Below are positions 2,909-60,700 of a stretch of 64,000 nt of DNA, in pieces. The notes below the pieces were generated by a model. It did no database searches and had not been told where the DNA came from. It saw only the letters and a program-made list of their open reading frames with translations. The first letter of the stretch is position 1. The number at the start of each line of letters is the position of its first letter. This DNA is from Escherichia phage 04086. The stretch lies in the sequence record OR842557. One strand, 5' to 3'. Position numbers and translations under genes: made by a program.

Positions 2909-4690
2909 GAACATATCAAAAAACGTAGTGGGATGTATATTGGCTCCAGTGCTAATGAAGCTCACGGTCGATTCCTGTTTGGTAATTTTACACAGGTAAA
3001 CTATGTTCCTGGACTAGTTAAATTAATTGACGAAATCATTGATAACTCTGTCGATGAAGCTATTCGTACCAATTTTAAATTCGCAAATAAAATTGATGTT
3101 CAAATTAAGAATAACCAGGTTTCAGTTTCTGATAATGGTCGTGGTATTCCACAAGCAATGGTCACCGACCAAAATGGTGAACAGATTCCAGGTCCTGTAG
3201 CAGCATGGACTATTCCAAAGGCGGGTGGTAACTTTGGAGATGACGCTGAGCGTAAGACAGGCGGCATGAATGGTGTCGGTAGTAGTTTAACTAATATCTT
3301 CTCCGTTTTGTTCACAGGCATCACCTCTGATGGCGAGAATGAAATTACAGTTAACTGTTCCAATGGAATGGAAAACAAAGGTTGGTCTACTAAGAAATCT
3401 AAAGGTAAGGGTACTTCGGTTATATTCACTCCAGACTTTAATCATTTTGAAGAGAACTCTCTATCACAAATTTATCTGGATATTACTCTAGATCGTCTTA
3501 AAACTCTAGCTGTAATTTATCCTAGTATCCAATTTACTTTTAATGGTAAAAAAGTAGATGGTAACTTTAAAAAGTATGCTAATCAATTTGGTAAAGATGT
3601 AGTAATTCAAGAAACCGATAATGTCTCAATGGCATTTACCACATCTCCGGATGGATTCCGTCACCTAACTTATGTGAACAATATTCATACTAAGAATGGT
3701 GGTCATCATGTTGAATGTGTGTTTGATGATATCTGCGAACATCTCTTGCCAGGCATCAAGAAGAAATATAAAGGCATCGAAGTAAGTAAGGCCCGAGTTA
3801 AAGAATGCTTAACTATGCTGATGTTCATTCGCGATATGAGTAATATGCGTTTTGATTCCCAGACTAAAGAACGTTTGACGTCACCATTCGGTGAAATTCG
3901 TAACCATATTCAAATTGATGCAAAGAAAATCTCACAGTATATTCTTAAAGACGAAGGGTTGATTATGCCTATCGTTGAAGCTGCTTTAGCACGTAAATTA
4001 GCAGCTGAAAAGGCTGCCGAAACTAAAGCCGCTAAGAAAGCTTCTAAAGCCAAGGTCCATAAGCATATTAAAGCTAACTTATACGGCAAAGATGCTGATA
4101 CAACCCTGTTCCTAACCGAAGGTGATTCCGCTATGGGTCCTTTCATTGAAGTCCGTAATAAAGACCTTCAAGGTGGTTATCCGTTACGTGGTAAGGTTAT
4201 GAATACCTGGGGAATGACAGCAACAGATATCATGAAGAACAAGGAACTATTTGATATCTGTGCAATCACTGGACTGGTTATTGGTGAACCTGCAGAGAAA
4301 ACCAACTATCGTAATATCGCTATCATGACCGATGCTGATGTGGATGGTACTGGTTCGATTTATCCATCATTGCTAGCCTTCTTTAGTCAATGGCCTGAAT
4401 TGTTCGAACAAGGTCGAGTGCGGTTCTGTAAAACTCCGGTAATTATTGCTCAGGTGGGTAAAGAACAGGAATGGTTCTATGATGTCCCTAGTTATACCAA
4501 AGCTAAGGACTCTCTACCAAAACATTCTATTCGTTATATCAAAGGACTAGGTTCTCTTGAGAAGGCCGAATACCGTCGAATGATTCAAGACCCTAAATTT
4601 GATGTGGTTCAATTGCCTGAAGATTGGAAAGAACAGTTCGAAATGCTCCTCGGAAACGACCCTCAACTCCGTAAGGCCTGGATGTCGTAA
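2873..4690 (+). CDS. 39: DNA topoisomerase II large subunit, ATPase (GyrB-like), full-length unsplit form (605 aa)
   Basis: Recalled similarity to T4 gp39; length matches the fused 39+60 form; no gene 60 / mobA insertion. The true start is the second copy after the N junction. Confidence 0.9.
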   Translation: MIKNEIKVLSDIEHIKKRSGMYIGSSANEAHGRFLFGNFTQVNYVPGLVKLIDEIIDNSVDEAIRTNFKFANKIDVQIKNNQVSVSDNGRGIPQAMVTDQNGEQIPGPVAAWTIPKAGGNFGDDAERKTGGMNGVGSSLTNIFSVLFTGITSDGENEITVNCSNGMENKGWSTKKSKGKGTSVIFTPDFNHFEENSLSQIYLDITLDRLKTLAVIYPSIQFTFNGKKVDGNFKKYANQFGKDVVIQETDNVSMAFTTSPDGFRHLTYVNNIHTKNGGHHVECVFDDICEHLLPGIKKKYKGIEVSKARVKECLTMLMFIRDMSNMRFDSQTKERLTSPFGEIRNHIQIDAKKISQYILKDEGLIMPIVEAALARKLAAEKAAETKAAKKASKAKVHKHIKANLYGKDADTTLFLTEGDSAMGPFIEVRNKDLQGGYPLRGKVMNTWGMTATDIMKNKELFDICAITGLVIGEPAEKTNYRNIAIMTDADVDGTGSIYPSLLAFFSQWPELFEQGRVRFCKTPVIIAQVGKEQEWFYDVPSYTKAKDSLPKHSIRYIKGLGSLEKAEYRRMIQDPKFDVVQLPEDWKEQFEMLLGNDPQLRKAWMS

Positions 4691-4733
4691 TAAATATGTA
4701 TGGTACATGAGTGCCATACAATTAGGAGACTTT

Positions 4734-4886
4734 ATGAGAAAGTACTGGATAACGCTAGCCACCGGTGAATTTGGATATCTCTGGGCTGAGAAGAGACCTT
4801 TGTTCGCAGAGTACGTGACCATTATGGTAGAAACCTGGGAAGGCGAATTTTATCAAGTTCGAGGACAAGTCTACAAAATTGAATAA
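4734..4886 (+). CDS. Small hypothetical protein (50 aa)
   Basis: AGGAGA Shine-Dalgarno 7 nt upstream of ATG; followed by hairpin terminator. Confidence 0.4.
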   Translation: MRKYWITLATGEFGYLWAEKRPLFAEYVTIMVETWEGEFYQVRGQVYKIE

Positions 4887-4890
4887 TTAA

Positions 4891-4909
4891 GGGCCGCAAG
4901 GCCCTTTTC
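4891..4909 (+). terminator. Rho-independent terminator
   Basis: GGGCCGCAAGGCCC hairpin then TTTTCGGGG; GTTTAC promoter-like hexamer follows at 4913-4918. Confidence 0.55.
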
Positions 4910-4959
4910 GGGGTTTACAACATAACAAAACTGTGATAGGATTATCTAGAGGTGAGAAT

Positions 4960-5283
4960 ATGATTATGCAAGATAACAGTATAGTGAACACTGATAACCT
5001 GGCTTTATCTTTTATGGAAACGGCTATTCGTAACTGTAAAGATGAAGGAGTAGTGACTACAAGCGGTAAGGGACTTGAATACCTTAAGGCTGTAAAATCT
5101 ATTGCCTTAAAGATTAAAGATAACCAGGCGCTCTCTCCTGTTGTCCAGGAAAAGGTTTTAGAGATAATGTATCGCCACAGAGAGCACAAAAGTACAATGG
5201 GTTCTATGAGAAGAATTCTGGCTGAACTTGGTTCTACCAGAGAATATGTTCAACATGAGGTAGTTAAAAATGACAAACTTTAA
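4960..5283 (+). CDS. Hypothetical protein (107 aa)
   Basis: ORF with GAGGTGAG ribosome binding site. Confidence 0.55.
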   Translation: MIMQDNSIVNTDNLALSFMETAIRNCKDEGVVTTSGKGLEYLKAVKSIALKIKDNQALSPVVQEKVLEIMYRHREHKSTMGSMRRILAELGSTREYVQHEVVKNDKL

Positions 5284-5473
5284 AGTGAATATTGATTTGT
5301 TCGATAAAGCCGTCCATAAAGAATTCCGGCTAATCCAGCGATTTTTTGATATCAATGCGGCTGAGGATTTTAAAGAACGCTTTAAAGAAATCAGATATAA
5401 AATACTCAACGACATCGCTACTAAGGACGAGCTCCTTGAAGTGGCAGACCTTTTTAAACGTAACCTGAATTGA
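5270..5473 (+). CDS. Hypothetical protein (67 aa)
   Basis: ORF overlapping upstream stop, immediately upstream of rIIA. Confidence 0.5.
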   Translation: MTNFKVNIDLFDKAVHKEFRLIQRFFDINAAEDFKERFKEIRYKILNDIATKDELLEVADLFKRNLN

Positions 5474-5480
5474 GAAAAAT

Positions 5481-7691
5481 ATGATTATCGAAACCGAAAA
5501 AGAACAAATCATTGGTAATGGTGCTAAGTCCACAGGCTTTACTATCCAGGCATCGCCTAAGGTCTTTAAAATTCTGTCGTCAGACCTTTATAGTAATAAG
5601 GTACGTGCTGTAGTACGTGAACTAATTACCAACATGATTGATGCTCATATTCTGAATGGTAATAAAGAACGTTGGAAAGTACAGGTTCCTGGTAAACTGG
5701 ACCCTCGTTTCGTGTGCCGTGACTTCGGGCCGGGTATGAGCGATTTCCAAATTCGCGGTGATGAAAATGAAACAGGTTTGTACAACTCTTATTTCGCATC
5801 ATCCAAAACGGCTTCTAATGATTTCATCGGCGGCTTTGGCCTTGGTTCAAAATCTCCGTTCAGTTATACCGAAACGTTTAATATCACCTCATGGCATAAC
5901 GGTGAAGTTCGTGGTTATGTAGCTTATATGGACGGCGATGGCCCGCAGATTAAACCCACTTTCGTCGAACCTATGCAGCCAGGCGATAAAACAGGTATCG
6001 AAATCACGGTTCCTGTTGATGAAGAAGATTTCCGTAAGTTTGAAACTGAAGTTCGTTATATCATGCGGCCTTTCATTGGCCTTGGTGATGTCGATGGTGT
6101 TGAAGTTGATTATTTCCCTGAATTTGACGATTACTATCCTGTAACCACTACAAATTATGGCAACTTCGAACGTTCAGGTCTTTATGCTGTTTATGGTGGT
6201 ATTGTCTATCCATTAGATTCAGCTTATAATAAAGGCACATGGATGCGTACTCGCCATGATGTAGTTTATATTAAGTTCCCTATGGGTTCACTGGATATTG
6301 CTCCGTCTCGTGAAGTGCTGTCTCTTGATAAACGTACGATGGAAAATATTGCAACCCGTATCGAAGCACTGGATGCCTTGGTCTTTAAAAACGATACACA
6401 GGAATGGGTTGAATCTGATAATCCACGCCATGTTTATCGTGACCTTTCTAACCTTGGTTACAGTGCTCGTGACTATCTTACCAAAAAAGGTGGAACTAGC
6501 CTGTTTACTACAGAAAAATTGACCTTTGAAAAACTGTATCAAAAATATACACTTCAAAACGACCTTCTTAATTTAGGCGTTGTTTACGAAATCGTTTCAG
6601 ACCCACGTTTGAAACGAATTAAGCCGAGTGGTAATACTTCTTCGGTGGCAGGACTTAGTAGTTTATTAGGCATTAATAAGAAAGAAATCCATGTTGTTTA
6701 TGATGATGAAAAGGGTCGTGTGCCACTAGTTCGAGGACTTTGGGCCTTGGCAATGGACAACAGTGCTTCGGCTAAGAAAATTGTTAAAGAGAACAATATT
6801 CCTAAATACGGAACCGACCTTATTTTTGTCGACCCAAATTCAATGCTGCAAATGCAACAACTTGAAAAGGTTAAAGAACTTTTTAAAGGTGACACCATTC
6901 ATTTTTATAAAGTCTCAGAGCTGAATAAAATTGTTAAGCCATGGATTCCGGTTACTGTGCGTTCATCAGAACCTCGTCCTAAAACACCGAGTGCTTATCG
7001 TTGGTTCATTAAAGACGGGCGTTGGCAAACAGAGACCATGTATTTGACCGCCGCAGAAGCAGAAGAAATTACAGGTTATGTGCTGTTTGGCAGTCGTTCT
7101 GATATCATGGGAATGGACGAAGCTTATGGTATCTTTGACATCAATACCACTACCATGTGTCGTATGGCTAATTTGATTGGTGTAACAGAATTCCATATCA
7201 TTCGCCCTCAGATTGCCAAAAAGATTAAAAAGTTAGGTCAATGTGAATGCTTGATGGAAGCTACATTAGAAGCCTATGCCGAAGCCCTAGACGCGGTAGA
7301 TGTTGATGACTACCTTGGTAGTAATACCCGTGCTCGGTATTACCTTGAAATCATTGCCAAGTTCCCTGAGCTCGGTTTCATGACTAAGTATTTTAGTGAT
7401 AAGCCTGTGACTGAAGCATATACTCGTCTGAGTAATTTCTATGATATATTCCGTTATATGAATTTCCATGGTTATATCACTGATGACAAGCTTTCCGTTA
7501 TCAAGAAAATTTGTAACACCACGTTTAATACGTTAACCAATAATGCTTCAAGCAACAATGATAAAATGACTTTACAGTTTGAATCTGATTACCATTTAGT
7601 TTCGGACTACATGTATCGTCGTGGAACATCCATTACCGAGGCTTCTGTAGCTCAAATCGTTAAATTCATGAAAGCCGTGGAAGCGGCTTAA
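5481..7691 (+). CDS. rIIA: rIIA protein (736 aa), GHKL-type ATPase N-terminal domain
   Basis: Length and position next to rIIB; N-terminal region with ELITNMIDAH and GFGLGSKS motifs characteristic of histidine-kinase-like ATPase fold found in rIIA. Confidence 0.9.
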   Translation: MIIETEKEQIIGNGAKSTGFTIQASPKVFKILSSDLYSNKVRAVVRELITNMIDAHILNGNKERWKVQVPGKLDPRFVCRDFGPGMSDFQIRGDENETGLYNSYFASSKTASNDFIGGFGLGSKSPFSYTETFNITSWHNGEVRGYVAYMDGDGPQIKPTFVEPMQPGDKTGIEITVPVDEEDFRKFETEVRYIMRPFIGLGDVDGVEVDYFPEFDDYYPVTTTNYGNFERSGLYAVYGGIVYPLDSAYNKGTWMRTRHDVVYIKFPMGSLDIAPSREVLSLDKRTMENIATRIEALDALVFKNDTQEWVESDNPRHVYRDLSNLGYSARDYLTKKGGTSLFTTEKLTFEKLYQKYTLQNDLLNLGVVYEIVSDPRLKRIKPSGNTSSVAGLSSLLGINKKEIHVVYDDEKGRVPLVRGLWALAMDNSASAKKIVKENNIPKYGTDLIFVDPNSMLQMQQLEKVKELFKGDTIHFYKVSELNKIVKPWIPVTVRSSEPRPKTPSAYRWFIKDGRWQTETMYLTAAEAEEITGYVLFGSRSDIMGMDEAYGIFDINTTTMCRMANLIGVTEFHIIRPQIAKKIKKLGQCECLMEATLEAYAEALDAVDVDDYLGSNTRARYYLEIIAKFPELGFMTKYFSDKPVTEAYTRLSNFYDIFRYMNFHGYITDDKLSVIKKICNTTFNTLTNNASSNNDKMTLQFESDYHLVSDYMYRRGTSITEASVAQIVKFMKAVEAA

Positions 7692-7705: not shown

Positions 7706-8872
7706 ATGTACAATATTAAGTGTCTGGCTAAATCTGAACAAGAGAAAGTAGTTTCCCTCTATAAATCCGGTAATTATACTCAGCAAGAATTAGCTGACTG
7801 GTATAGTGTTTCGGTTGATACCATTCGTAAAGTCCTGAAAAATGCTGAAGAAGCTAAACGTTCTCAAGTGGCTAAAGAATTAGCCGAATCTCTTAAAAAA
7901 GCACCTACTGTACCTCTTAACGCCCCAACAGAAGTGGTTATTACTGGAAATATCAAAGTAACGGTTCCTAACGAGCCTCGTGTAGTTCCGGTTGATATTA
8001 CTATTGGTGGTTCTCGTCCAGAAATTATCTGGAATGCTAGTTCTAAATTCGTGTCCATCACCGAAGGCCGTACAGTATGGAACACCACTAATAAGAACAA
8101 ACATTTTGATGCCATCGTACAGGCTCTTAAAGAATCTCGTTTTGACGACGCGATTAAACTGATTTCCATTAAAGAAGCTGTTAAGGCCTTCGTCAAAGGT
8201 AACGTTCGTATTGAAGGCGGACGTCTGGTTTATCAAGGTATCGAATTGCGTTCCGGTTTGATTGACCGTATTATCACCTCAATGGAAAATGGCGAAGACT
8301 TCGAATTCTACCTGCCGTTCCTTGAGAACCTGTTAGAAAACCCAAGTGAAAAAGCTGTACAGCGTCTGTTCGACTTCTTGGTCGCGAACGATATCAAAAT
8401 CACTGAAGACGGCCACTTTATCACATGGAAGGTGGTTAACTCCGATTACACCGACTGCCGTACTGGTACGTTTGATAANNNTGAAAAAGCTGTACAGCGT
8501 CTGTTCGACTTCTTGGTCGCGAACGATATCAAAATCACTGAAGACGGCCACTTTATCACATGGAAGGTGGTTAACTCCGATTACACCGACTGCCGTACTG
8601 GTACGTTTGATAACTCACCAGGCAAACCGGTTAAAATGCCTCGTTCACGTGTAAACAATGACGACACAGTAACTTGTTCAAGCGGTCTACACGTTTGCTC
8701 TCGTAGCTATATCGGCGCATTTGGTAATTCAAACAACCGTGTAGTTTCATGTAAAGTTAACCCACGTGATGTTGTTAGTATTCCTGTTGATTATGGCGAT
8801 GCTAAAATGCGCGTATGTTATTATGAAGTTCTGGAAGACGTTACCGATCAGTTTAAATCAGATTTACGTTAA
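7706..8872 (+). CDS. rIIB: rIIB protein; annotated length inflated by a 135-nt in-frame duplicated segment with NNN
   Basis: Position downstream of rIIA; real length about 343 aa after removing the duplicated copy. Confidence 0.85.
   Translation: MYNIKCLAKSEQEKVVSLYKSGNYTQQELADWYSVSVDTIRKVLKNAEEAKRSQVAKELAESLKKAPTVPLNAPTEVVITGNIKVTVPNEPRVVPVDITIGGSRPEIIWNASSKFVSITEGRTVWNTTNKNKHFDAIVQALKESRFDDAIKLISIKEAVKAFVKGNVRIEGGRLVYQGIELRSGLIDRIITSMENGEDFEFYLPFLENLLENPSEKAVQRLFDFLVANDIKITEDGHFITWKVVNSDYTDCRTGTFDXXEKAVQRLFDFLVANDIKITEDGHFITWKVVNSDYTDCRTGTFDNSPGKPVKMPRSRVNNDDTVTCSSGLHVCSRSYIGAFGNSNNRVVSCKVNPRDVVSIPVDYGDAKMRVCYYEVLEDVTDQFKSDLR
8348..8612. repeat. N-marked junction (NNN at 8479-8481) between identical direct copies inside rIIB
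   Basis: 131-nt segment GAAAAAGCTGTACAGCG...GTTTGATAA present twice, separated by NNN. Confidence 0.85.
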
Positions 8873-51718: not shown

Positions 51719-51997
51719 ATGTTTGTAGTTCATACAATTTCAGACTATGGTCCTACCACTACAATGGATTATGGTCATGTAAACCAGTTTATTCGTCATG
51801 TGAATCATGATTACTCATTTGATGTAAATCCGGCTAAAGACCATCCTGTTTGGCGCGAATGCGTCGAACAGGGATTCATTTATGTCCACTTTATGTCCAA
51901 GTTCAAATCTGATGGGCGAATGAGATTTGTGTTCTCTTATCATAAGCGATTAGACTTGCTTTTGGCTGATGTGGCTTATAATAGAATCCATGACTAA
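51719..51997 (+). CDS. Hypothetical protein (92 aa)
   Basis: ATG overlapping upstream stop. Confidence 0.45.
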   Translation: MFVVHTISDYGPTTTMDYGHVNQFIRHVNHDYSFDVNPAKDHPVWRECVEQGFIYVHFMSKFKSDGRMRFVFSYHKRLDLLLADVAYNRIHD

Positions 51998-52007
51998 TGA
52001 GGTGATT

Positions 52008-53531
52008 ATGATTTTAGATATTTTAAACGAAATTGCTGCTATTGATTCTACTAAAGCTAAAGAAGCCATTATTGCTCGTGAAAAGGACAATGAGCTTCTG
52101 AAACGTGTTTATCGTATGGCTTATACCCGTCGTCTGAACTACGGTATTAAAAAGTGGCCAGAACCTGGATTTACATCTCAATCCTTTGGTATGATTACTC
52201 TTGAAGACCTTCTTGATTTCGCTGAATTCACATTAGCCACACGTAAGATTACGGGTAATGCGGCTATTGAAGAATTGGCTCAAATCATTGCTGATGCTAA
52301 GGCCCCGGATGCCGAGGTATTACGTCGTGTAATGATGCGCGACCTTGAATGTGGTGCATCGATTTCTATTGCTAACAAGGTTTGGAAAGGTTTAATCCCT
52401 GAACAACCGCAGATGTTGGCGAGTTCTTATGATGAAGCTTTGATTAAGAAAAATATTAAATGGCCAGCGTTTGCTCAATTAAAAGCTGATGGTGCTCGTT
52501 GTTTTGCCGAAGTTCGTAACGATGGTGTGACATTCCTTACTCGTGGTGGTAATGAATATCAAGGGCTTAATCTTTTGGCTGCTGAATTAATGGCCATGAC
52601 CGAAGAAGCTCGACAACGCCATCCTAATGGCGTTATGATTGATGGCGAATTAGTTTACCATACTCCTAAGGTAGAACCTAAAGCATCTAATGATTTGTTT
52701 AGTATGTTTGACGAGGAACTTCCTGAATTAAGTAAGGCTAAGGAATTCCAAACTGTCGCCGATCGTTCTACGTCAAATGGCTTGGCTAACAAAGCTCTTC
52801 AAGGAACTATCACTCCATCCGAAGCAGCCGGTATGGTATTACAGGCATGGGATTATGTCCCGCTGGATGTCGTGTATTCTGAAGGCAAAATTAAAGGCGA
52901 TAAGTACGATGTACGCTTTACGGCCTTAGAACTTATGGTTGCTCATAATGTCGTATTGCATGGCAAAACGCGTGTTGAAGCTATCGAAAACCAGTGGGTT
53001 AATAATCTTGAAGAAGCTAAAGTCGTTTATAAAAAATATGTCGACCAAGGTCTGGAAGGTATTATCCTTAAGAACATGGACTCCTACTGGGAAAACCGCC
53101 GTTCTAAGAATCTTATCAAGTTCAAAGAAGTAATCGATATCGCTTTAGAAGTGGTAGGTTATTATGAACACTCGAAGGACCCTAACAAACTTGGTGGCGT
53201 CGAGTTAGTATCACATTGTCGTCGAATTACAAGTGACTGTGGCTCAGGCTTTAAAGATACTACCCATAAGAAAGATAAATCAGGTAAAAAGGTATTGATT
53301 CCACTGGAAGACCGTCCTGATTTAGACCGTGAACTTCTTATGAAACAAGCTCGTGAAGGTAAGTTGATTGGACGTATTGCTGACTGTGAATGTAATGGTT
53401 GGGTTCATTCTAAAGGACGTACCGATACTGTAGGTATTTTCCTTCCAATCATTAAAGGTTGGCGTTTCGATAAAACAGAAGCTGATACATTTGAAGATGT
53501 ATTTGGTGATTGGTCTCAAACTGGACTATAA
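52008..53531 (+). CDS. 30: ATP-dependent DNA ligase (about 507 aa)
   Basis: Strong recalled similarity to T4 DNA ligase from MILDILNEIA; KADGAR adenylation motif; GASISIANKVW, EGIILKN, ECECNGW. Confidence 0.95.
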   Translation: MILDILNEIAAIDSTKAKEAIIAREKDNELLKRVYRMAYTRRLNYGIKKWPEPGFTSQSFGMITLEDLLDFAEFTLATRKITGNAAIEELAQIIADAKAPDAEVLRRVMMRDLECGASISIANKVWKGLIPEQPQMLASSYDEALIKKNIKWPAFAQLKADGARCFAEVRNDGVTFLTRGGNEYQGLNLLAAELMAMTEEARQRHPNGVMIDGELVYHTPKVEPKASNDLFSMFDEELPELSKAKEFQTVADRSTSNGLANKALQGTITPSEAAGMVLQAWDYVPLDVVYSEGKIKGDKYDVRFTALELMVAHNVVLHGKTRVEAIENQWVNNLEEAKVVYKKYVDQGLEGIILKNMDSYWENRRSKNLIKFKEVIDIALEVVGYYEHSKDPNKLGGVELVSHCRRITSDCGSGFKDTTHKKDKSGKKVLIPLEDRPDLDRELLMKQAREGKLIGRIADCECNGWVHSKGRTDTVGIFLPIIKGWRFDKTEADTFEDVFGDWSQTGL

Positions 53532-53532
53532 T

Positions 53533-53715
53533 ATGAAAGCTTATTTAGAAACCGTGGTTATTGGATATAAAGAAGGTGGGGATGTCTCCACTGCAGTGTC
53601 CCAAATTGTCCTTGAATTTGAAAATGAAATCGCATTCGCTGATTTTAAAGATAATTTCGACCGCTATGAAAAGGGTCCTAAATTTGAAGTATACCGTACG
53701 TTGCTACCACTTTAA
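53533..53715 (+). CDS. Hypothetical protein (60 aa)
   Basis: ATG overlaps ligase stop; followed by hairpin terminator. Confidence 0.45.
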   Translation: MKAYLETVVIGYKEGGDVSTAVSQIVLEFENEIAFADFKDNFDRYEKGPKFEVYRTLLPL

Positions 53716-53733
53716 GGCCTTCGGGCCTTTTCT
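53715..53733 (+). terminator. Rho-independent terminator
   Basis: AGGCCTTCGGGCCT then TTTCT. Confidence 0.55.
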
Positions 53734-53765
53734 GGCATAAATAAGGTTATTAAAGAGGAATTATT

Positions 53766-55661
53766 ATGTCCGAACAATTGAATGAGGTATTTGACGGCGC
53801 TATAGATTTATCAGCTGTCAATTTAAACCCTAAACTTAAAGTACCACAGATTTGGAATATAAAGGCTGAAGGTAATGAGAACCTTGTTGCACGCATGGTT
53901 TCATATACTTCTGAAGGTGATACAATCCGCCAAGTTAAACCGGGTGACAAATACGTTCATATTATTTTAATGAGCCTATCATCTAAAGGGGCCCCGGCAG
54001 AACTCAAAGGTGGTTTAGGTAGTAACCCCATTTCCGCTATTCGTTCTATATTTGATACGGTTTATGAACAAGTTAAAAAGCTCCGTATGGATGCCGTTAT
54101 GTTCCGTTTTCCTACTAAGAAAATGAAAGGTCAGGAAAAAGCTGTACAACGAGTTCTAGCCAAATTAATAGCTACTAGAGCAGGTGGGCAATTCAAGGTC
54201 CTTGATGCCTTGTATCAATATACAGGCAAACATTCATATGTTTTTATCTATCGTAAAAATAAAAATATAGAATCAATAAACGGTATTCCTAATATTAATC
54301 CGGAATTGTATACTAAAGTCGAATCTGAAGTCGGTGATGTGTATGTTTCAAAGAAAACAGGCGAAGATGTTACCAAATTAGAAGCTATAGCTAAGTCTAT
54401 AGACGAAATAGAAAAATCACGTTCTGATAAAATGGTTATAACCAAGACTAAGGTTTCTAAACGGGCCGCTATAAATGCGTTATATTCTACCGCCGAGCCT
54501 ACAGGATTGAGTAAATTTTCGGCAGAGCACAAAAAAGCTTATGCAGATTATTCTGCTACTAGTTCCGTTCATTCTTCTGAAGATTCTAAAGAAAGCCAAA
54601 TAGCTTTAGCCAGTAATAAAATATTAAAAGACGCCTCTAAAGAAATGGCAGAATATTTGGATTATATTTTTAACGGTGTTAATCCATCATTTGAAGTAGA
54701 CGAGCGCAAACTTAAACTAATTGCTGATATAAAGTTTGCTTTAGAGGCATCAGATTCTTTAGATAAATCTAATAGTGTCATAGAGGCTTTAAAATCAGGT
54801 AAATCTCATGTAGACATTCTTAGACTAGTCGCTGCGGCCCTTTTAGATGATTCAGTTAAAGGTACTTGGGCTAGAGAATCTAAAATCAAGGAAGTAATAA
54901 AATCCTTAGTAGCAGTTTATACAAAATCTATCCAACCGTTGTTTAAGATATCTGATAATCCTAATTTATCCAAACCTCAAGAAGAGGCAGTCAAAAAGTA
55001 TACTCGTGGCGGCTACAACCATATAAACAACTTTTTGCTAGGTAAAACAGATACCACCGATGAAATGATAAAAATGATTGGTGAGTTGGATTCTACATTT
55101 GAAAATGGTACAAAACTTCCTAAAGGAACCATAGTGTATCGTTCTCAGATAATGCCTACCGAAATGGCTTTGAATTCTATAAAACATAAGGTGATGTATC
55201 TTCCTATTTTTGCATCAACTTCATTGGCTCCTAATATTTTCGGTGAAATGGGTCATGCTCAATCCAACTTAGACCCTGAAGCTCTTTCTAGCGATATAGA
55301 TAGTAATCTTGAAGACACCATTAAAAGTGCGACCGGAAGTGCTAGAGATACCATTAAGCTAGGGCTAATTATTAAAGGTGCTGATAAAATTAAGGTTATT
55401 GTGCCCGGTGACTTGGCTAATTGGTCTACAGAAACCGAAGTAATTCTTCCTCGTGGGGTTATGCTTAAGATTAATAAAGTATACGGTGCTTCCAAGGGAC
55501 CTATGGGTTCAATTGGTAAATATGTTTTAGTGGAATGTGAAGTTGTAGCTACAGAGCAAATCACAGAGGAAAATTCATATAGCACCGGATTCTCGTTTGG
55601 AAATTATGATAGAATTATGTATGAAGATTCTATGGAAAAATTAGCAAATTTATTTAAATAG
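53766..55661 (+). CDS. alt: Alt-family ADP-ribosyltransferase, paralog 1 (631 aa)
   Basis: N-terminal module shared with the next two genes; C-terminal ADP-ribosyltransferase motifs YRSQ (Arg), FASTSL (STS) and ETEVILPRG (E-x-E); location between 30 and 54 as for T4 alt. Confidence 0.8.
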   Translation: MSEQLNEVFDGAIDLSAVNLNPKLKVPQIWNIKAEGNENLVARMVSYTSEGDTIRQVKPGDKYVHIILMSLSSKGAPAELKGGLGSNPISAIRSIFDTVYEQVKKLRMDAVMFRFPTKKMKGQEKAVQRVLAKLIATRAGGQFKVLDALYQYTGKHSYVFIYRKNKNIESINGIPNINPELYTKVESEVGDVYVSKKTGEDVTKLEAIAKSIDEIEKSRSDKMVITKTKVSKRAAINALYSTAEPTGLSKFSAEHKKAYADYSATSSVHSSEDSKESQIALASNKILKDASKEMAEYLDYIFNGVNPSFEVDERKLKLIADIKFALEASDSLDKSNSVIEALKSGKSHVDILRLVAAALLDDSVKGTWARESKIKEVIKSLVAVYTKSIQPLFKISDNPNLSKPQEEAVKKYTRGGYNHINNFLLGKTDTTDEMIKMIGELDSTFENGTKLPKGTIVYRSQIMPTEMALNSIKHKVMYLPIFASTSLAPNIFGEMGHAQSNLDPEALSSDIDSNLEDTIKSATGSARDTIKLGLIIKGADKIKVIVPGDLANWSTETEVILPRGVMLKINKVYGASKGPMGSIGKYVLVECEVVATEQITEENSYSTGFSFGNYDRIMYEDSMEKLANLFK

Positions 55662-55669
55662 GATAGATT

Positions 55670-57751
55670 ATGACCCAATTAAATGAAGTGTTCGAGTCCG
55701 AAGGTACACTGCCTGTTGTGAACTTGAACCCAAAACTTAAAGTACCTCAGATTTGGAAGATTGGAGACGCGGAGTCTCAGTTAGTAGCACGTATGGTATC
55801 CTACGCTTCTGAAGGTGATGCTATTAAACAAGTTAAAATGGGTGATAAATATGCCCACGTTATCCTTATGAGCCTTTCAGCTAAAGGTTCGCCTGCCGAA
55901 CTTAAAGGCGGCTTAGGCCCTACTCCTGTAGATGCGATTAATACTATTTTTGATGTAGTTTATGACCAAGTTAAAAAGCTTCGTATGGATGCCGTGATGT
56001 TCCGTTTTCCTACCAAGAAAATGAAAGGTCAAGGCCCTATCGTTCAACGTATTATCCAACGTTTGGTAGCACAGAAAACCGGTGGACGTTTTAAAGTGGT
56101 TCCGGCTATGTACCAATTTACCGGTAAACATACTTACATCCTGGTAGTCCGTAAACAAGCTGATATCGAAGATATCAAAGGTATGCCTGGAATTAATGCT
56201 GAATTGTATACTAAGGTAGATTCTGATGTCGGTGAAGTTTATATTTCCAAAAAAGAAGGTGTGCAGGTTACTAAAGAAACTGCTATTGCTGGCAGTATTG
56301 CTAAGGTTGAAGAACGTCGCACTGATAAAATGGTTATAACCAAGACTAAGATTTCTAGGCGCGCCATTGCAGCAAGCCAATCATTGGAATCTTATCGTAA
56401 TGAAAGTGAATTGTTTAAGAAATATGAAGCTACTGCAGCGGATTTTAATAAACCGGCAACAGTTCCATTAATCCCTGAGGCTCAGGAAATGGTTACTAAT
56501 AACAATTCTCCTGCGGCTAAAAATAAGGTTGCTAATATAGTGGCTGAAGGCACTGCTGAAGAATTGCATTACGATTATAAAATGTTTCCTCTTCACGGTA
56601 TAGGTGAAATCCAAGAGAAAATTAAAGAGAAAATTCTTACAGCAATAAAAAACGAACCTTTGACATCTGTTAAAGCTCTAGAAAAATATGCCTCTGCTAT
56701 TAATACCGTTTTCGAAGAATACAAAGGTGAATGGCTGGCTATCCATAACAGAACTCGTAAAGGCCAACCTGATGACCTTTGGAACGAATTGACAGAGGCC
56801 AAGTGGAAAGCAGCCAAGACTAAGTTCATTAAAAAACGTGTATATAGTTTTGCTGGTGTGGGTGGCGGTATTATGGTTGATATTACTATTGCTCGTGAGG
56901 GCTCTAAATATACCCCATCACAAAAGCGCGGAATCAGAGAATATTGTGGTTCAGGATATACAGACATAAATAATCTTCTTTTAGGACGTTATAATCCTCA
57001 GAACTATGAGGTTATGAGCGAAAAAGATATCGAATCTGCAGTTAATAATTTGGATTCTGCTTTTGAAAACGGCGACCGTATACCAGAAGGCATCACAGTT
57101 TATCGCGCACAGAGTATGACTGCTCCTATATACGAAGCACTAGTTAAAAATAAAGTGTTCTATTTCAGAAATTTTGTATCTACTTCTTTAACTCCTATCA
57201 TTTTCGGACGTTTTGGTGTTACCCACGCAGGTATTGGTCTTTTAGAACCTGAAGTTCGCAATGAATTGACAGTCGATAAAAATGAAGAAGGAATAACTAT
57301 TAACCCTAATGAAATAAGAGCGTATAAAGAAAACCCTGATTACGTTAAAGTTCAAATAGGATGGGCAATTGATGGAGCCCATAAAGTTAATGTCGTATAT
57401 CCAGGAAATCTCGGAATAGCAACTGAAGCCGAAGTTATTCTGCCGCGTGGATTAATGGTCAAAGTTAATAAAATAACAGATGCTTCTAATAATGATGGAA
57501 CAACATCTAGTAATACAAAACTCATCCAAGCTGAAGTTATGACAACAGATGAGCTTCAAGAATCTGTGGTATATGATGGTGACGTACTAATGGAAACCGG
57601 CGAGCTGGTCGTGTATCAAGATGATTTCGATACTTCCGAAAGCCCTGTATCTTTTGATTCATTTGTTAAATCTACACGGTTTGATGTACTGCCTCTTTTG
57701 GCTTCATGCATAGACCTCTATGACATCCCAGAAAAATTCATCCAAGGGTAA
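55670..57751 (+). CDS. alt: Alt-family ADP-ribosyltransferase, paralog 2 (693 aa)
   Basis: Same N-terminal module; motifs YRAQ, FVSTSL, EAEVILPRG; size closest to T4 Alt. Confidence 0.85.
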   Translation: MTQLNEVFESEGTLPVVNLNPKLKVPQIWKIGDAESQLVARMVSYASEGDAIKQVKMGDKYAHVILMSLSAKGSPAELKGGLGPTPVDAINTIFDVVYDQVKKLRMDAVMFRFPTKKMKGQGPIVQRIIQRLVAQKTGGRFKVVPAMYQFTGKHTYILVVRKQADIEDIKGMPGINAELYTKVDSDVGEVYISKKEGVQVTKETAIAGSIAKVEERRTDKMVITKTKISRRAIAASQSLESYRNESELFKKYEATAADFNKPATVPLIPEAQEMVTNNNSPAAKNKVANIVAEGTAEELHYDYKMFPLHGIGEIQEKIKEKILTAIKNEPLTSVKALEKYASAINTVFEEYKGEWLAIHNRTRKGQPDDLWNELTEAKWKAAKTKFIKKRVYSFAGVGGGIMVDITIAREGSKYTPSQKRGIREYCGSGYTDINNLLLGRYNPQNYEVMSEKDIESAVNNLDSAFENGDRIPEGITVYRAQSMTAPIYEALVKNKVFYFRNFVSTSLTPIIFGRFGVTHAGIGLLEPEVRNELTVDKNEEGITINPNEIRAYKENPDYVKVQIGWAIDGAHKVNVVYPGNLGIATEAEVILPRGLMVKVNKITDASNNDGTTSSNTKLIQAEVMTTDELQESVVYDGDVLMETGELVVYQDDFDTSESPVSFDSFVKSTRFDVLPLLASCIDLYDIPEKFIQG

Positions 57752-57754
57752 ATA

Positions 57755-60317
57755 ATGGAAAATTTAAACGAGGTTTTTGATAGTGATTCCGCTAAAAACT
57801 ATCCAGTAACAAATCTTAAACCGGGTTCCGGTATTCCACAGATTTTCTCTATCCAAGCACCAGGTAACGATAACCTGGTTGCTCGCATGGTATCTTATGC
57901 GTCTGAAGGCGACGCTATTAAGATGGTTAAGGCGGGCGATAAGTACGTCCATGTTATCTTAATGAGTTTATCTGCTAAAGGCGCTCCGGCAGAACTCAAG
58001 GGCGGTTTGGGTACCGATCCACTCGGTACACTGAACACCATTTTCGATACCATATATGAACAAATAAACAAACTTAAAATGGACGCGGTTTTATTCCGTT
58101 TCCCTACTAAGAAAATGAAAGGTAAGGGCCCTACCGTTCAGCGCGTATTAGCTCGTTTGGCTATGGCCCGTACCGGTGGTAAGTTTAAAGTTGTTGACGA
58201 CATGTTCCAATTCAGCGGAAAACATACCTACGTTCTTTTAGTACGTCGTGGTGCTAATATTGAAGATATCAAGGGTATGCCTGAAATTAATGCCGATCTT
58301 TATACTAAAGTTGAGTCTAAAGTTGNAGGTCCTACCGTTCAGCGCGTATTAGCTCGCTTGGCTATGGCTCGTACCGGTGGTAAGTTTAAAGTTGTTGACG
58401 ACATGTTCCAATTCAGCGGAAAACATACCTACGTTCTTTTAGTACGTCGTGGTGCTAATATTGAAGATATCAAGGGTATGCCTGAAATTAATGCCGATCT
58501 TTATACTAAAGTTGAGTCTAAAGTTGGCGAAGTGTATGTTTCTAAGAAAACCGGCCAGGCNTAAGGGCCCTACCGTTCAGCGCGTATTAGCTCGTTTGGC
58601 TATGGCCCGTACCGGTGGTAAGTTTAAAGTTGTTGACGACATGTTCCAATTCAGCGGAAAACATACCTACGTTCTTTTAGTACGTCGTGGTGCTAATATT
58701 GAAGATATCAAGGGTATGCCTGAAATTAATGCCGATCTTTATACTAAAGTTGAGTCTAAAGTTGGCGAAGTGTATGTTTCTAAGAAAACCGGCCAGGCCG
58801 TAAGTAAGGTCGAAGCAGTAGCGGCATCTATTGCACAAGTTGAAGAGAAACGTACCGATAAGGCTGTCATTACCCGTACTAAGATTTCCCGTCGTATGGC
58901 AGCAGCCGCGCAGTATTCTACTGCTGAGCCTGAAACTTTGTCCCCTAAAGAATTGCAGGTTTATAACGAGTTTGAAGCTTCTGTACCGGTTCACACGGCT
59001 GAAGGCCCTGAGAATGAAGGTATTGAACAGATTAGTCAGAACTTTAAAAAAGGTGCTATTACTAAAATGCGCCAGGCTTCTCAGTTTAAATCTAAGAGCG
59101 AGGACCTTGCCAACTTTAGATACACTATTGCCCTCACGCACGCTTTAATGACTGATAGTAAATTTAAACTAAATTATGCTAATAGAGATAAACAAGGGTT
59201 TGAAATTTACTCTAATAATATGGCATTTTTTAATACAGAAGTCGATAGACTTTTAAGTGGTCTTTCGCAAATCAATACAACCAATAGTCTGGATATTATT
59301 AAGAAAATTGTTAATAACTTGAGTGCTCGTTTTAAGGGTTCCCCTTCAGAAAAGGCCTCTCGAATTGCTTTCGCTATGGAAGCCGTTTATAAACTGGTTA
59401 ACGATTCTATTAGTGATGCATATGCTTATTCAGGCGAGCTCATTAAACCTAAGGACCTAACCAAAGACGAAAGCAATGCTATTATTGAATATTGCGCAGC
59501 TGAATATGCTCCTATGAACTTATTCCTTTTAGGTAAACCTGAATCCGAAAACAATACAACGGCTATTAAATTGATTAAGGATTTAGACTCAGCATTTACT
59601 AAGGGTATTAAACTTCCTAAGGGTACTATTTTGTATCGTGGTCAGGATTTGCCATACAAAATTCTGCGCCATAATATCGATAACAAAACATTTTACTTTA
59701 AGAACTTTGTGTCAGCCTCATTAAAGCCTAACATCTTTGGTGAATTTGGTAAAAATTATATGGCCCTCGACAACCAAGCCGTTTTTGTTGGCGGCGAAGG
59801 TTCTTTATCCTCCGCTGATGAGTTGTTTAAATTGGCTAGCGGTAGTTCATCTGATGTGGGTGAAGTCGATGACGAAGAGGTAGAATGGGAAGAAGACGAG
59901 TTCGGTAATCCAATTGCGCCCGAAGGTCCTGCGGATAGAATTGCTGAAATTGGTATGGTTATTCGAGGTGCTGAAGCAGTTAAAGTTATCGCTCCTGGTG
60001 ACCTTACAGAATATGCCGAAGAAGCAGAAATTATCCTTCCGCGTGGGTTATTGTTGAAGGTTGATAAAGTAGCGGCTTTTGCTATGAATGATAGAGTATC
60101 TCACAAATACCTTATGGAAGCTACCGTAACACCTCCTTCAGAGCTCAGTGAATCTGTTTACGATGGTGACCATTTGATGGAAACTGGTGAAGTTCGCCTG
60201 ATGGACGGCTTTAAACAGTTCTTGGTTAGTGAATCCATTTCTGAAAGTAACGAGGCTATGGAAATCCTTGCTGCATCTTTGGATATCTCTTCTTTATCAA
60301 ATAAATTCAAAATGTAG
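57755..60317 (+). CDS. alt: Alt-family ADP-ribosyltransferase, paralog 3; annotated length inflated by two N-junction duplications
   Basis: Same N-terminal module; motifs YRGQ, FVSASL (STS variant), EAEIILPRG; real length about 705 aa. Confidence 0.8.
58123..58800. repeat. Three overlapping copies of ~200-235 bp inside alt paralog 3 separated by N at 58326 and 58561
   Basis: Copy 2 extends further 3' than copy 1 and carries 3 synonymous differences; copy 3 matches copy 1. Confidence 0.8.
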
Positions 60318-60370
60318 TTTACATTACCACAAGGATGTGGTACTATTACCTTACACAAACATGAGGAGAA
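60317..60370 (+). promoter_or_regulatory. Early promoter cassette
   Basis: GTTTAC 60317-60322, TACTAT 60341-60346, CATGAGGAGAACATTATG leader. Confidence 0.55.
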
Positions 60371-60374
60371 CATT

Positions 60375-60665
60375 ATGAAATCTACATTCCGTTTTAATGG
60401 TCAAGAACTGGTAGTTGAAAACGTTATCCCTGCTTCTGAAGAGTTTGACAGTGCAGTGGGTAATGAATTACGTCGAGTTTTCGGTGAAGACAAACAGTTT
60501 GATATCCGACCTGTTGAGAATTTTTCTTATCCAGAACAAACCGAAAACATTTTTAACGGTGTAGTGACAGGACAACTCGAATCCGAAGCTCCTATTTCGG
60601 TTACGGTGTTTGTTAAAAAGCAACCACTAATGACCACAGCAGGTTTCATTTCGTTCCGTAAATAA
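60375..60665 (+). CDS. Hypothetical protein (96 aa)
   Basis: ORF after promoter cassette; followed by bidirectional terminator. Confidence 0.55.
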   Translation: MKSTFRFNGQELVVENVIPASEEFDSAVGNELRRVFGEDKQFDIRPVENFSYPEQTENIFNGVVTGQLESEAPISVTVFVKKQPLMTTAGFISFRK

Positions 60666-60671
60666 ACCCCT

Positions 60672-60700
60672 AAAGGAGAGCATATGCTCTCCTTTTTTGT
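60672..60700. terminator. Bidirectional terminator between convergent genes
   Basis: AAAGGAGAGCATATGCTCTCCTTT palindrome flanked by T-run on + strand. Confidence 0.65.

Follow-up and report, generated by a model that had tools for sequence, protein, structure and literature searches.

Three tandem Alt-family genes at the alt locus

The DNA of Escherichia phage 04086 (sequence record OR842557) was analyzed over a stretch of 64,000 nucleotides (nt), referred to here as the window. Positions 53766-60317 of the window hold three tandem genes of the Alt family, with products (Alt1, Alt2, and Alt3) of 631, 693, and 707 amino acids (aa), the third after reconstruction. Alt of phage T4 carries out NAD-dependent ADP-ribosylation of host proteins, e.g., of RNA polymerase alpha at Arg265. 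Each Alt is described below as an N-terminal module (N-module) followed by a cargo, i.e., a divergent center, an ADP-ribosyltransferase (ART) domain, and a C-terminal tail; cargoes are numbered by type. The gaps between the Alt1 and Alt2 genes and between the Alt2 and Alt3 genes are 8 and 3 nt, respectively.

53766..55661, + strand: Alt1, type-1 cargo, 631 aa, intact open reading frame (ORF)
55670..57751, + strand: Alt2, type-2 cargo, T4 Alt ortholog, 693 aa, intact ORF
57755..58325, + strand: Alt3, type-3 cargo, first piece, codons 1-190 plus 1 nt (nt 1-571 of the WG01 gene, 91.4% identity)
58326..58764: assembly artifact in Alt3, with N at 58326 and 58561 and redundant copies of segment 58121-58325
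58765..60317, + strand: Alt3, remainder, aa 191-707

Over this region, the DNA identity of the window is 97% to Escherichia phage WG01 (Straboviridae, Tevenvirinae, Dhakavirus) and 87-93% to other Dhakavirus phages. The gene order is gp30 ligase, an alt.1 homolog, the three + strand alt genes, an alt.-3 homolog, and the convergent baseplate genes 54, 48, and 29. The array thus sits between gene 30/alt.1 and alt.-3/gene 54, as expected of the T4 Alt family, in the slot that T4 Alt itself (gpAlt, NP_049811) occupies. We conclude that this is the T4 alt locus, with synteny as in T4, JS10, and WG01.

An earlier note, made from the sequence alone, had proposed three tandem Alt-family genes here. 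Each product does match T4 Alt from end to end, with full-length identities of 34% (Alt1), 47.5% (Alt2), and 32.5% (Alt3), and the Pfam domain PF03496 is found in all. We excluded the possibility that ordinary flanking genes had been mistaken for alt, since the homologs of alt.1 (53491-53715) and alt.-3 (60375-60665) lie outside the array. The Alt1 and Alt2 ORFs of that note are intact; the third gene (57755 to 60317) is split in the window by the assembly artifact described below.

Domain architecture and catalytic motifs

The three copies were aligned with T4 Alt by using MAFFT, and identities were scored per segment. Coordinates of the Alt2 and Alt3 features were verified by translation.

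53766..54473, + strand: Alt1 N-module, aa 1-236 (62-65% identity to the Alt2 and Alt3 N-modules)
54474..54965, + strand: Alt1 divergent helical center, aa 237-400 (10-23% identity to the other copies; all-helical in the AlphaFold2 model)
54966..55568, + strand: Alt1 ART domain (R459 at 55140-55142, S484-T-S486 at 55215-55223, E556-T-E558 at 55431-55439)
55670-56377, + strand: Alt2 N-module
56378-56884, + strand: Alt2 center
56885-57562, + strand: Alt2 ART domain (R479 at 57104-57106, STS at 57179-57187, EAE at 57425-57433)
58902-59453, + strand: Alt3 center
59637-59639, 59712-59720, and 60021-60029, + strand: Alt3 catalytic motifs R482, SAS, and EAE, respectively
59865-59903, + strand: Alt3 acidic insert VDDEEVEWEEDEF

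For the N-module (aa 1-236), identity is 62-67% between copies and 42-46% to T4 Alt (46% for Alt2); the N-modules of the window are therefore nearer to each other than to that of T4. The center (~aa 237-405) is 10-23% identical between copies, and BLASTP between the centers gave no match, except for the first ~59 aa of the Alt1 and Alt3 centers. The ART domain is 33-39% identical between copies, compared with 58-69% between orthologs. Alt2 is the copy closest to T4 Alt (35% in the center and 62% in the ART domain), whereas Alt1 and Alt3 are 32-34% identical to T4 Alt and have unrelated centers. Conserved ends around divergent cores of ~250 aa had been described in the earlier note. The N-terminal strings that it quoted (LNEVF, ARMVSY.SEGD, MDAVMFRFPTKKMKGQ) are present, the N-terminal end is strongly conserved, and the centers lack detectable similarity overall; however, the ART end is far less conserved than the N-module, and the divergent center spans ~165-185 aa.

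Pfam ADPrib_exo_Tox (PF03496) scored above the cutoff in all three proteins (E values of 7.6e-14, 4.3e-36, and 7e-18 for Alt1, Alt2, and Alt3, respectively). The C-terminal R / S-T-S / E-x-E motifs that had been read from the letters are retained on proper alignment: R (as YR), S-T/A-S, and E-x-E line up across the three copies, T4 Alt, and nine additional paralogs. In an alignment of 69 sequences, S484, E556, and E558 (Alt1 numbering) show no variation, and R459 is conserved to at least 90%. The ART fold and the R-S-E active site place the proteins in the R-S-E (C3/VIP2-like) ART clade. Unlike the C3/VIP2/iota-like toxins of that clade, Alt has neither a B-component-binding pseudo-ART domain nor a secretion signal, and its delivery is through the phage head. 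BLASTP against T4 ModA and ModB gave no significant similarity (E of at least 0.2); those are stand-alone early ARTs of ~200 aa without an N-module, whereas the proteins described here have 631-707 aa and carry one. PF26846 (the N-module) together with PF03496 is annotated on homologs, as in the T4 Alt family; this assignment comes from precomputed annotation of the homologs. We found no match in NCBIfam. The proteins have no MuF or other Pfam domain besides PF03496, which speaks against membership among the MuF-fused or polyvalent effectors. The build of N-module, helical center, R-S-E ART, and C-terminal tail is common to T4 Alt and the window copies. By every sequence-level test that we ran, all three proteins belong to the T4 Alt family, and their intact catalytic residues and E-x-E motif suggest that all three are active in ADP-ribosylation.

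No deposited structure of Alt was found. An AlphaFold2 model of Alt1 (predicted local distance difference test score [pLDDT], 82; predicted template modeling score [pTM], 0.76) consists of an alpha/beta N-module (residues 1-200), a helical center (204-447), an ART core (448-595), and a tail that is disordered past residue 601. A protein 100% identical to Alt1 is present in sequence cluster P0004, and Alt1 is 63% identical to the Alt of Shigella phage SP18.

The change of STS to SAS and the acidic insert had been taken as signs that the third copy might be regulatory or catalytically altered. The catalytic residues of Alt3 (R482, S507, S509, and E610/E612) are intact. SAS retains both serines, and the middle residue of this motif varies in the family (STS in the Moonvirus counterpart, SCS in an Aeromonas phage copy). 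The insert lies in the loop between the STS strand and the ARTT/ExE region, which is hypervariable in length and sequence in every Alt type. Since, in addition, the gene is under strong purifying selection (see below), we see no reason in the sequence to call Alt3 inactive. The ARTT-loop residues before E-x-E differ by type (NW, G-I, and EY). The center, these ARTT-loop residues, and the variable insert are likely specificity determinants.

The break in the third gene

The third gene appears in the window as two ORFs, 57755-58564 and 58449-60317, both containing X. A segment of ~200-240 nt of alt3 occurs in three copies, which are separated by one N each (58326 and 58561). By BLASTN, the three pieces correspond to nt 1-571, 372-605, and 369-2124 of the WG01 gene. 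The same signature recurs across the window in unrelated genes: at 12 of 12 N sites (2727, 8479-8481, 12361, 13224, 34180, 34404, 36777, 41683, 42463, 46283, 58326, and 58561), the 30 nt before the N recur 100-210 nt downstream. The third gene is intact, at 707 aa, in WG01, JS10, ABTNLS3, QL01, and E33. Because the signature is common to all N sites and the relatives have an intact gene, we conclude from the sequence that the break in alt3 is an assembly artifact, i.e., unmerged overlaps of contigs laid end to end. When 57755-58325 is joined to 58765-60317, the result is an intact 707-aa protein collinear with the 707-aa protein of WG01, the DNA pieces being 91-97% identical.

We rejected two other readings of this region. 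A real tandem duplication in alt3 does not fit pieces that match overlapping segments of the WG01 gene and a signature found at every N site. Replacement of the third gene, considered on account of alignments that end at query position 4826, was rejected since that stop is the N at 58326 and ABTNLS3 and E33 share the 707-aa gene. The pieces differ in their identity to WG01 (91.4% for the first [57755-58325], 100% for the short middle piece, and 97.2% for the last). This could mean that genotypes of closely related phages are mixed in the scaffold or that the N-module and the cargo have different histories; the rate of synonymous substitution (dS) in Alt3, 0.36 for the N-module versus 0.13 for the rest, fits the latter. 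Other window ORFs that span any of the 12 N sites also look frameshifted or duplicated.

Predicted packaging and processing

T4 Alt is a protein of the prohead core, with ~40 copies per head (PMC9026906), and mass spectrometry has located its gp21 protease cuts behind ITE-6 and LTE-619, the second of which takes off 63 C-terminal residues (PMC5694885). An Alt ortholog has also been found in virions of an RB69-like phage (PMC6563131). Both T4 sites align with an [LI]xE motif in all three copies.

53778-53786, + strand: Alt1 predicted gp21 site LNE-7 (E7 invariant in 69 sequences; aligned to T4 ITE-6)
55560-55568, + strand: Alt1 predicted C-terminal gp21 site ITE-601, at the end of the ART domain
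55569..55658, + strand: Alt1 C-terminal propeptide (predicted), 30 aa, C-terminal to the residue that aligns with T4 LTE-619 (residues from 602 on have a pLDDT below 50)
55679-55687 and 57554-57562, + strand: Alt2 predicted gp21 sites LNE-6 and LQE-631, respectively
57563-57748, + strand: Alt2 C-terminal propeptide, 62 aa
57764-57772, + strand: Alt3 predicted N-terminal gp21 site LNE-6
60144-60152, + strand: Alt3 predicted gp21 site LSE-653
60153-60314, + strand: Alt3 C-terminal propeptide, 54 aa

The earlier suggestion that the LNE|VF start is a gp21 site thus agrees exactly with a site established by mass spectrometry (PMC5694885), and the alignment of a second [LI]xE with T4 LTE-619 strengthens the case for packaging and processing. 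Both site glutamates (E7 and E601 in Alt1) are invariant in the 69-sequence alignment, and confidence in the Alt1 model falls exactly after E601. At the level of sequence, these alignments provide good evidence for the predicted protease sites. By analogy with T4, all three copies are presumably packaged and processed.

Selection on the three genes

We calculated the ratio of nonsynonymous to synonymous substitution rates (dN/dS) against orthologs by the method of Nei and Gojobori. The ratio was 0.02-0.04 for Alt2 (versus WG01 and JS10), 0.04 for Alt3, and 0.076 for Alt1 (versus E33), with low values for N-module and cargo alike. We conclude that all three genes are under purifying selection and that none is decaying.

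Alt arrays in other phages

The existence of a three-gene array is already known, and the novelty ascribed to it in the earlier note was overstated. Triplets are annotated in several phages, including near-identical ones: WG01 (YP_009323398-400, RefSeq), PSD9, E33, ABTNLS3, QL01, and MX01. Alt paralogs of RB49, 44RR, and T4 were listed in 2006 by Nolan et al. (PMC1524935); our literature search found no paper that analyzes the triplet. The WG01 triplet consists of the same 631-, 693-, and 707-aa genes in the same order, and the third gene is broken only in the window. E33 and ABTNLS3 have the same array, whereas QL01 and MX01 have a variant triplet; in QL01, the products have 694, 681, and 707 aa, and the middle gene carries a cargo of a fourth type. 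Two alt genes in tandem are found in JS10 and IME08 (altA/altB), Citrobacter phage Merlin, Aeromonas phage SW69-9 (44RR-like), and phage 212. The JS10 genes a and b correspond to types 2 and 3 of the window, and Merlin a and b correspond to types 1 and 3. In T4, alt.-1/alt.-2 is annotated as an old duplication of the start of alt. The pairs of JS10, IME08, Merlin, and SW69-9 and the T4 relic are at the same locus. None of these phages reaches the three full genes of the window phage: the number is two or, in T4, one full gene and a decayed relic. What our analysis adds is that cargo types are older than genera while N-modules follow lineage, that QL01 carries a chimera joined at TKISRR, and that purifying selection acts on all copies.

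Probable cargo exchange behind lineage-specific N-modules

We built neighbor-joining trees (200 bootstraps) of the ART domains and of the N-modules. In the ART tree, type 1 unites Alt1, phage 212_a, and Merlin_a (100%); type 3 unites Alt3, JS10_b, and Merlin_b (78%); and type 2 unites Alt2, JS10_a, a Mosigvirus Alt, and T4 Alt (100%), with 212_b as sister (98%). Moonvirus, too, has retained cargoes of types 1 and 3. In the N-module tree, Merlin_a, Merlin_b, and T4 group together (100%); the Dhakavirus and Mosigvirus modules form a cluster as well. ART cargo types therefore cross and predate phage genera, whereas N-modules group by lineage.

The middle Alt gene of QL01 (QL01_b; QL01 locus 3859-5904) carries the fourth cargo, which is 76-83% identical to that of phage 212_b. 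The N-module, in contrast, resembles the downstream neighbor's (89% identity) far more than that of 212_b (41%). In 30-aa windows along the protein, aa 1-235 are 80-100% identical to the neighbor, and afterward the sequence is 76-100% identical to 212_b. The switch falls at aa 235-245, at the universally conserved TKISRR motif. We conclude that QL01_b is a clean chimera with a crossover at TKISRR. A second mosaic boundary is seen when Alt1 is compared with its E33 counterpart, dS being 0.01-0.04 in the cargo and 0.62 in the N-module.

The order of types along the genome is consistent (1, 2, [4], 3), and the sets are 1-2-3 in the window, 2-3 in JS10, 1-3 in Merlin, 1-4 in phage 212, 2-4-3 in QL01, and 2 plus a relic in T4. 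The simplest reading is an old multigene array that underwent differential loss, homogenization or replacement of N-modules within genomes, and exchange of cargo cassettes between phages.

The N-module beyond Alt

With tblastn, the N-module was found at 1,820 places in 1,201 phage records. Among 1.84 billion proteins, it is carried by only 71 clusters (50% identity), always at the N terminus and almost always with an ART behind it. A search for homologs with the N-module only and a profile from 17 N-module sequences returned just 3-5 fragmentary proteins, which are uninformative about cargo diversity. Four distant metagenomic relatives of the N-module (P0173, P0174 [1142 aa], P0176, and P0178 [541 aa]) have C-terminal parts either without a Pfam ART match or with an ART-like region and extra residues; P0178 has no ART motifs, and P0174 has an ART-like region plus ~600 extra residues. 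In the phage collection, tblastn with P0178 matched only N-modules in Alt genes; the source phages of the four proteins are absent from that collection.

A profile search of the PDB with the N-module gave nothing meaningful. Foldseek with the modeled Alt1 N-module (aa 1-236) against predicted viral structures matched, with a probability of 1.00 and E values of 1e-9 to 1e-4, large uncharacterized proteins of unrelated phages, including Ackermannviridae-like phages and Vibrio and Agrobacterium jumbo phages (Dickeya phage RC-2014, Erwinia phage phiEa2809, Shigella phage MK-13, Vibrio phages VP-1 and Kuja, and Agrobacterium phage Atu_ph07). For some of these proteins, the annotation lists zeta-toxin, (cytidine) deaminase, or ParB domains. 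The N-module fold may be a general effector-delivery domain; we treat this as a lead, from matches scored for whole predicted structures.

The concept of a head-targeting N-terminal element, which gp21 cleavage takes away or leaves in place, followed by a variable injected effector is common to Alt, the T4 internal proteins IPI-III (with their capsid targeting sequence), and the MuF-fused and polyvalent effectors (PMC9026906; PMC5512222; PMC9503650). In contrast to the 10-aa targeting sequence of IPI-III, the Alt N-module is a folded domain of ~230 aa that is kept in the mature protein, and Alt has no MuF domain. Iyer et al. reported that Alt-family ARTs are absent from genuine polyvalent proteins (PMC5512222).

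Flanking genes and transcription signals

51969-53531, + strand: DNA ligase gp30 ORF, 520 aa
53491..53715, + strand: alt.1 homolog, 74 aa, not an Alt paralog (Pfam Phage_blade PF24647, E = 2.8e-29; same place as alt.1 of JS10 and T4)
53714..53729, + strand: terminator-like hairpin AAGGCC-TTCG-GGCCTT followed by TTTTC, 5′ of the alt array
53736..53743, + strand: CATAAATA, one mismatch to the T4 late-promoter box TATAAATA, 22 nt before the Alt1 ATG
53753-53759, + strand: Alt1 Shine-Dalgarno sequence AAGAGGA
60318-60346, + strand: sigma-70-like promoter (TTTACA, 17 nt, TG-TACTAT) from a promoter scan, directly 3′ of the alt3 stop, predicted to serve the alt.-3 homolog
60375..60665, + strand: alt.-3 homolog, 96 aa, DUF5498 (Pfam PF17602, E = 7e-34)
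60672..60695, + strand: strong terminator-like hairpin (10-bp stem and T-run) after alt.-3, shared with the convergent gp54 gene

The hairpin upstream of the array was read from the sequence and was not called by a simple scanner; a terminator upstream of alt is reported to be conserved in T4-like phages (PMC1524935). No exact T4 late box was found near the alt array, and one-mismatch matches to the box are not enriched in the window. The sequence TTTAAATA at 55653-55660 was rejected as a late promoter for Alt2, being too near the Alt2 start. Given its own sigma-70-like promoter and terminator, the alt.-3 homolog may be expressed early and apart from the alt genes. The longest ligase ORF (520 aa) begins 39 nt 5′ of the annotated WG01 start (507 aa), and its 3′ end overlaps the alt.1 homolog; the extra N-terminal length probably reflects an upstream in-frame ATG.

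Interpretation of the array

The array is best read, on the evidence of its sequence, as an exchangeable set of packaged, injected arginine ADP-ribosyltransferases. Each protein would begin with a short propeptide whose last residues are LNE and continue with an N-module of ~230 aa that is specific to the phage lineage (PF26846), a divergent helical center, an ART domain with R-S-E and E-x-E, and a C-terminal propeptide after the second [LI]xE. By analogy with T4 Alt, we think it likely that all three are made late and incorporated into the prohead core, that gp21 trims both of their ends, and that they enter the host with the DNA. Each would then modify host proteins as an arginine-specific mono-ADP-ribosyltransferase, ahead of all phage gene expression. 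It is plausible that different middles mean different targets: the divergent center and the active-site loops (the ARTT loop and the STS-ExE insert) would most likely give each copy its own set of substrates, serving host takeover or antidefense. Cargo cassettes would be exchanged behind the resident N-module by crossovers at the TKISRR boundary.

Several points weigh against this reading. For all three proteins, and for any phage with three copies, packaging and activity are argued from sequence and from analogy with T4, and distinct targets are argued from sequence divergence. The sole promoter-like element of the array, a late box with one mismatch, is weak evidence of late expression. T4 retains only a relic of a second copy (alt.-1/alt.-2), which indicates that extra copies are dispensable in some lineages. 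The discordance between the two trees could stem from independent duplications combined with very unequal rates; the mosaics of QL01 and E33 favor real exchange.

Three alternatives were weighed against an array of diverged, exchangeable effectors. If the three enzymes were packaged and active but redundant on the same targets (e.g., RNA polymerase alpha), the array would serve dose or robustness and the center would be a spacer without specificity. The E-x-E motif (arginine type) and the overall architecture are indeed common to all three, and T4 Alt is promiscuous, with many targets, according to Depping (2005) as cited in PMC5512222. However, the cargo types are ancient and have stayed separate lineages across genera, the ART domains diverge far more between copies than between orthologs, and the ARTT-loop residues and insert loop differ by type. 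Moreover, T4 Alt is required against the Mokosh type I defense and the Alt of another phage cannot replace it (bioRxiv 10.1101/2025.11.20.689424, a 2025 preprint), a lack of interchangeability that fits diversification under defense pressure. We regard redundancy as unlikely. Less probable still is a single working Alt (Alt2) accompanied by redundant or decaying duplicates, with Alt1 and Alt3 drifting and Alt3 already a pseudogene here. The decayed second copy in T4, the interruption of Alt3 in the window, and the finding that T4 alt is nonessential (PMC9026906) would fit, but the interruption carries the unmerged-contig signature and the third gene is intact in every close relative. Alt1 and Alt3 also retain their catalytic residues and both protease sites, have dN/dS values of 0.04-0.08, and carry cargo types that Moonvirus has kept as well. 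The least probable alternative, for which we see very little room, is that the N-module is itself a GNAT-like acyltransferase, making Alt a two-headed effector instead of a delivery module with cargo. The LKGGLG motif that would suggest such an enzyme is not conserved in T4 or Merlin, and the combination of a GNAT fold with motif A for acetyl-CoA (Q/R-x-x-G-x-G/A) was not found; we rejected this reading as weak.

Beyond the reading of the array as exchangeable injected ARTs, we tentatively propose, as a possibility rather than an expectation, that the alt locus is a cassette-exchange array. A lineage-specific PF26846 head-delivery domain would be matched to the phage's own prohead core, and at least four ART cargo types would be swapped at TKISRR, each answering a different host target or defense; the N-module would perhaps be a general, unrecognized delivery domain for injected effectors.

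Among phage enzymes that enter the cell with the DNA and reprogram the host, Alt is the textbook case, and it has recently also been shown to defeat Mokosh type I. A phage with three divergent, selectively kept Alts offers a natural test bed for finding which part of Alt sets the choice of substrate and what roles the N-module and the two propeptides play. A further question that it opens is whether an arms race with host defenses diversifies injected ARTs. The modular build, with a clean joint at TKISRR, suggests a practical route for loading foreign cargo into T4-like capsids.

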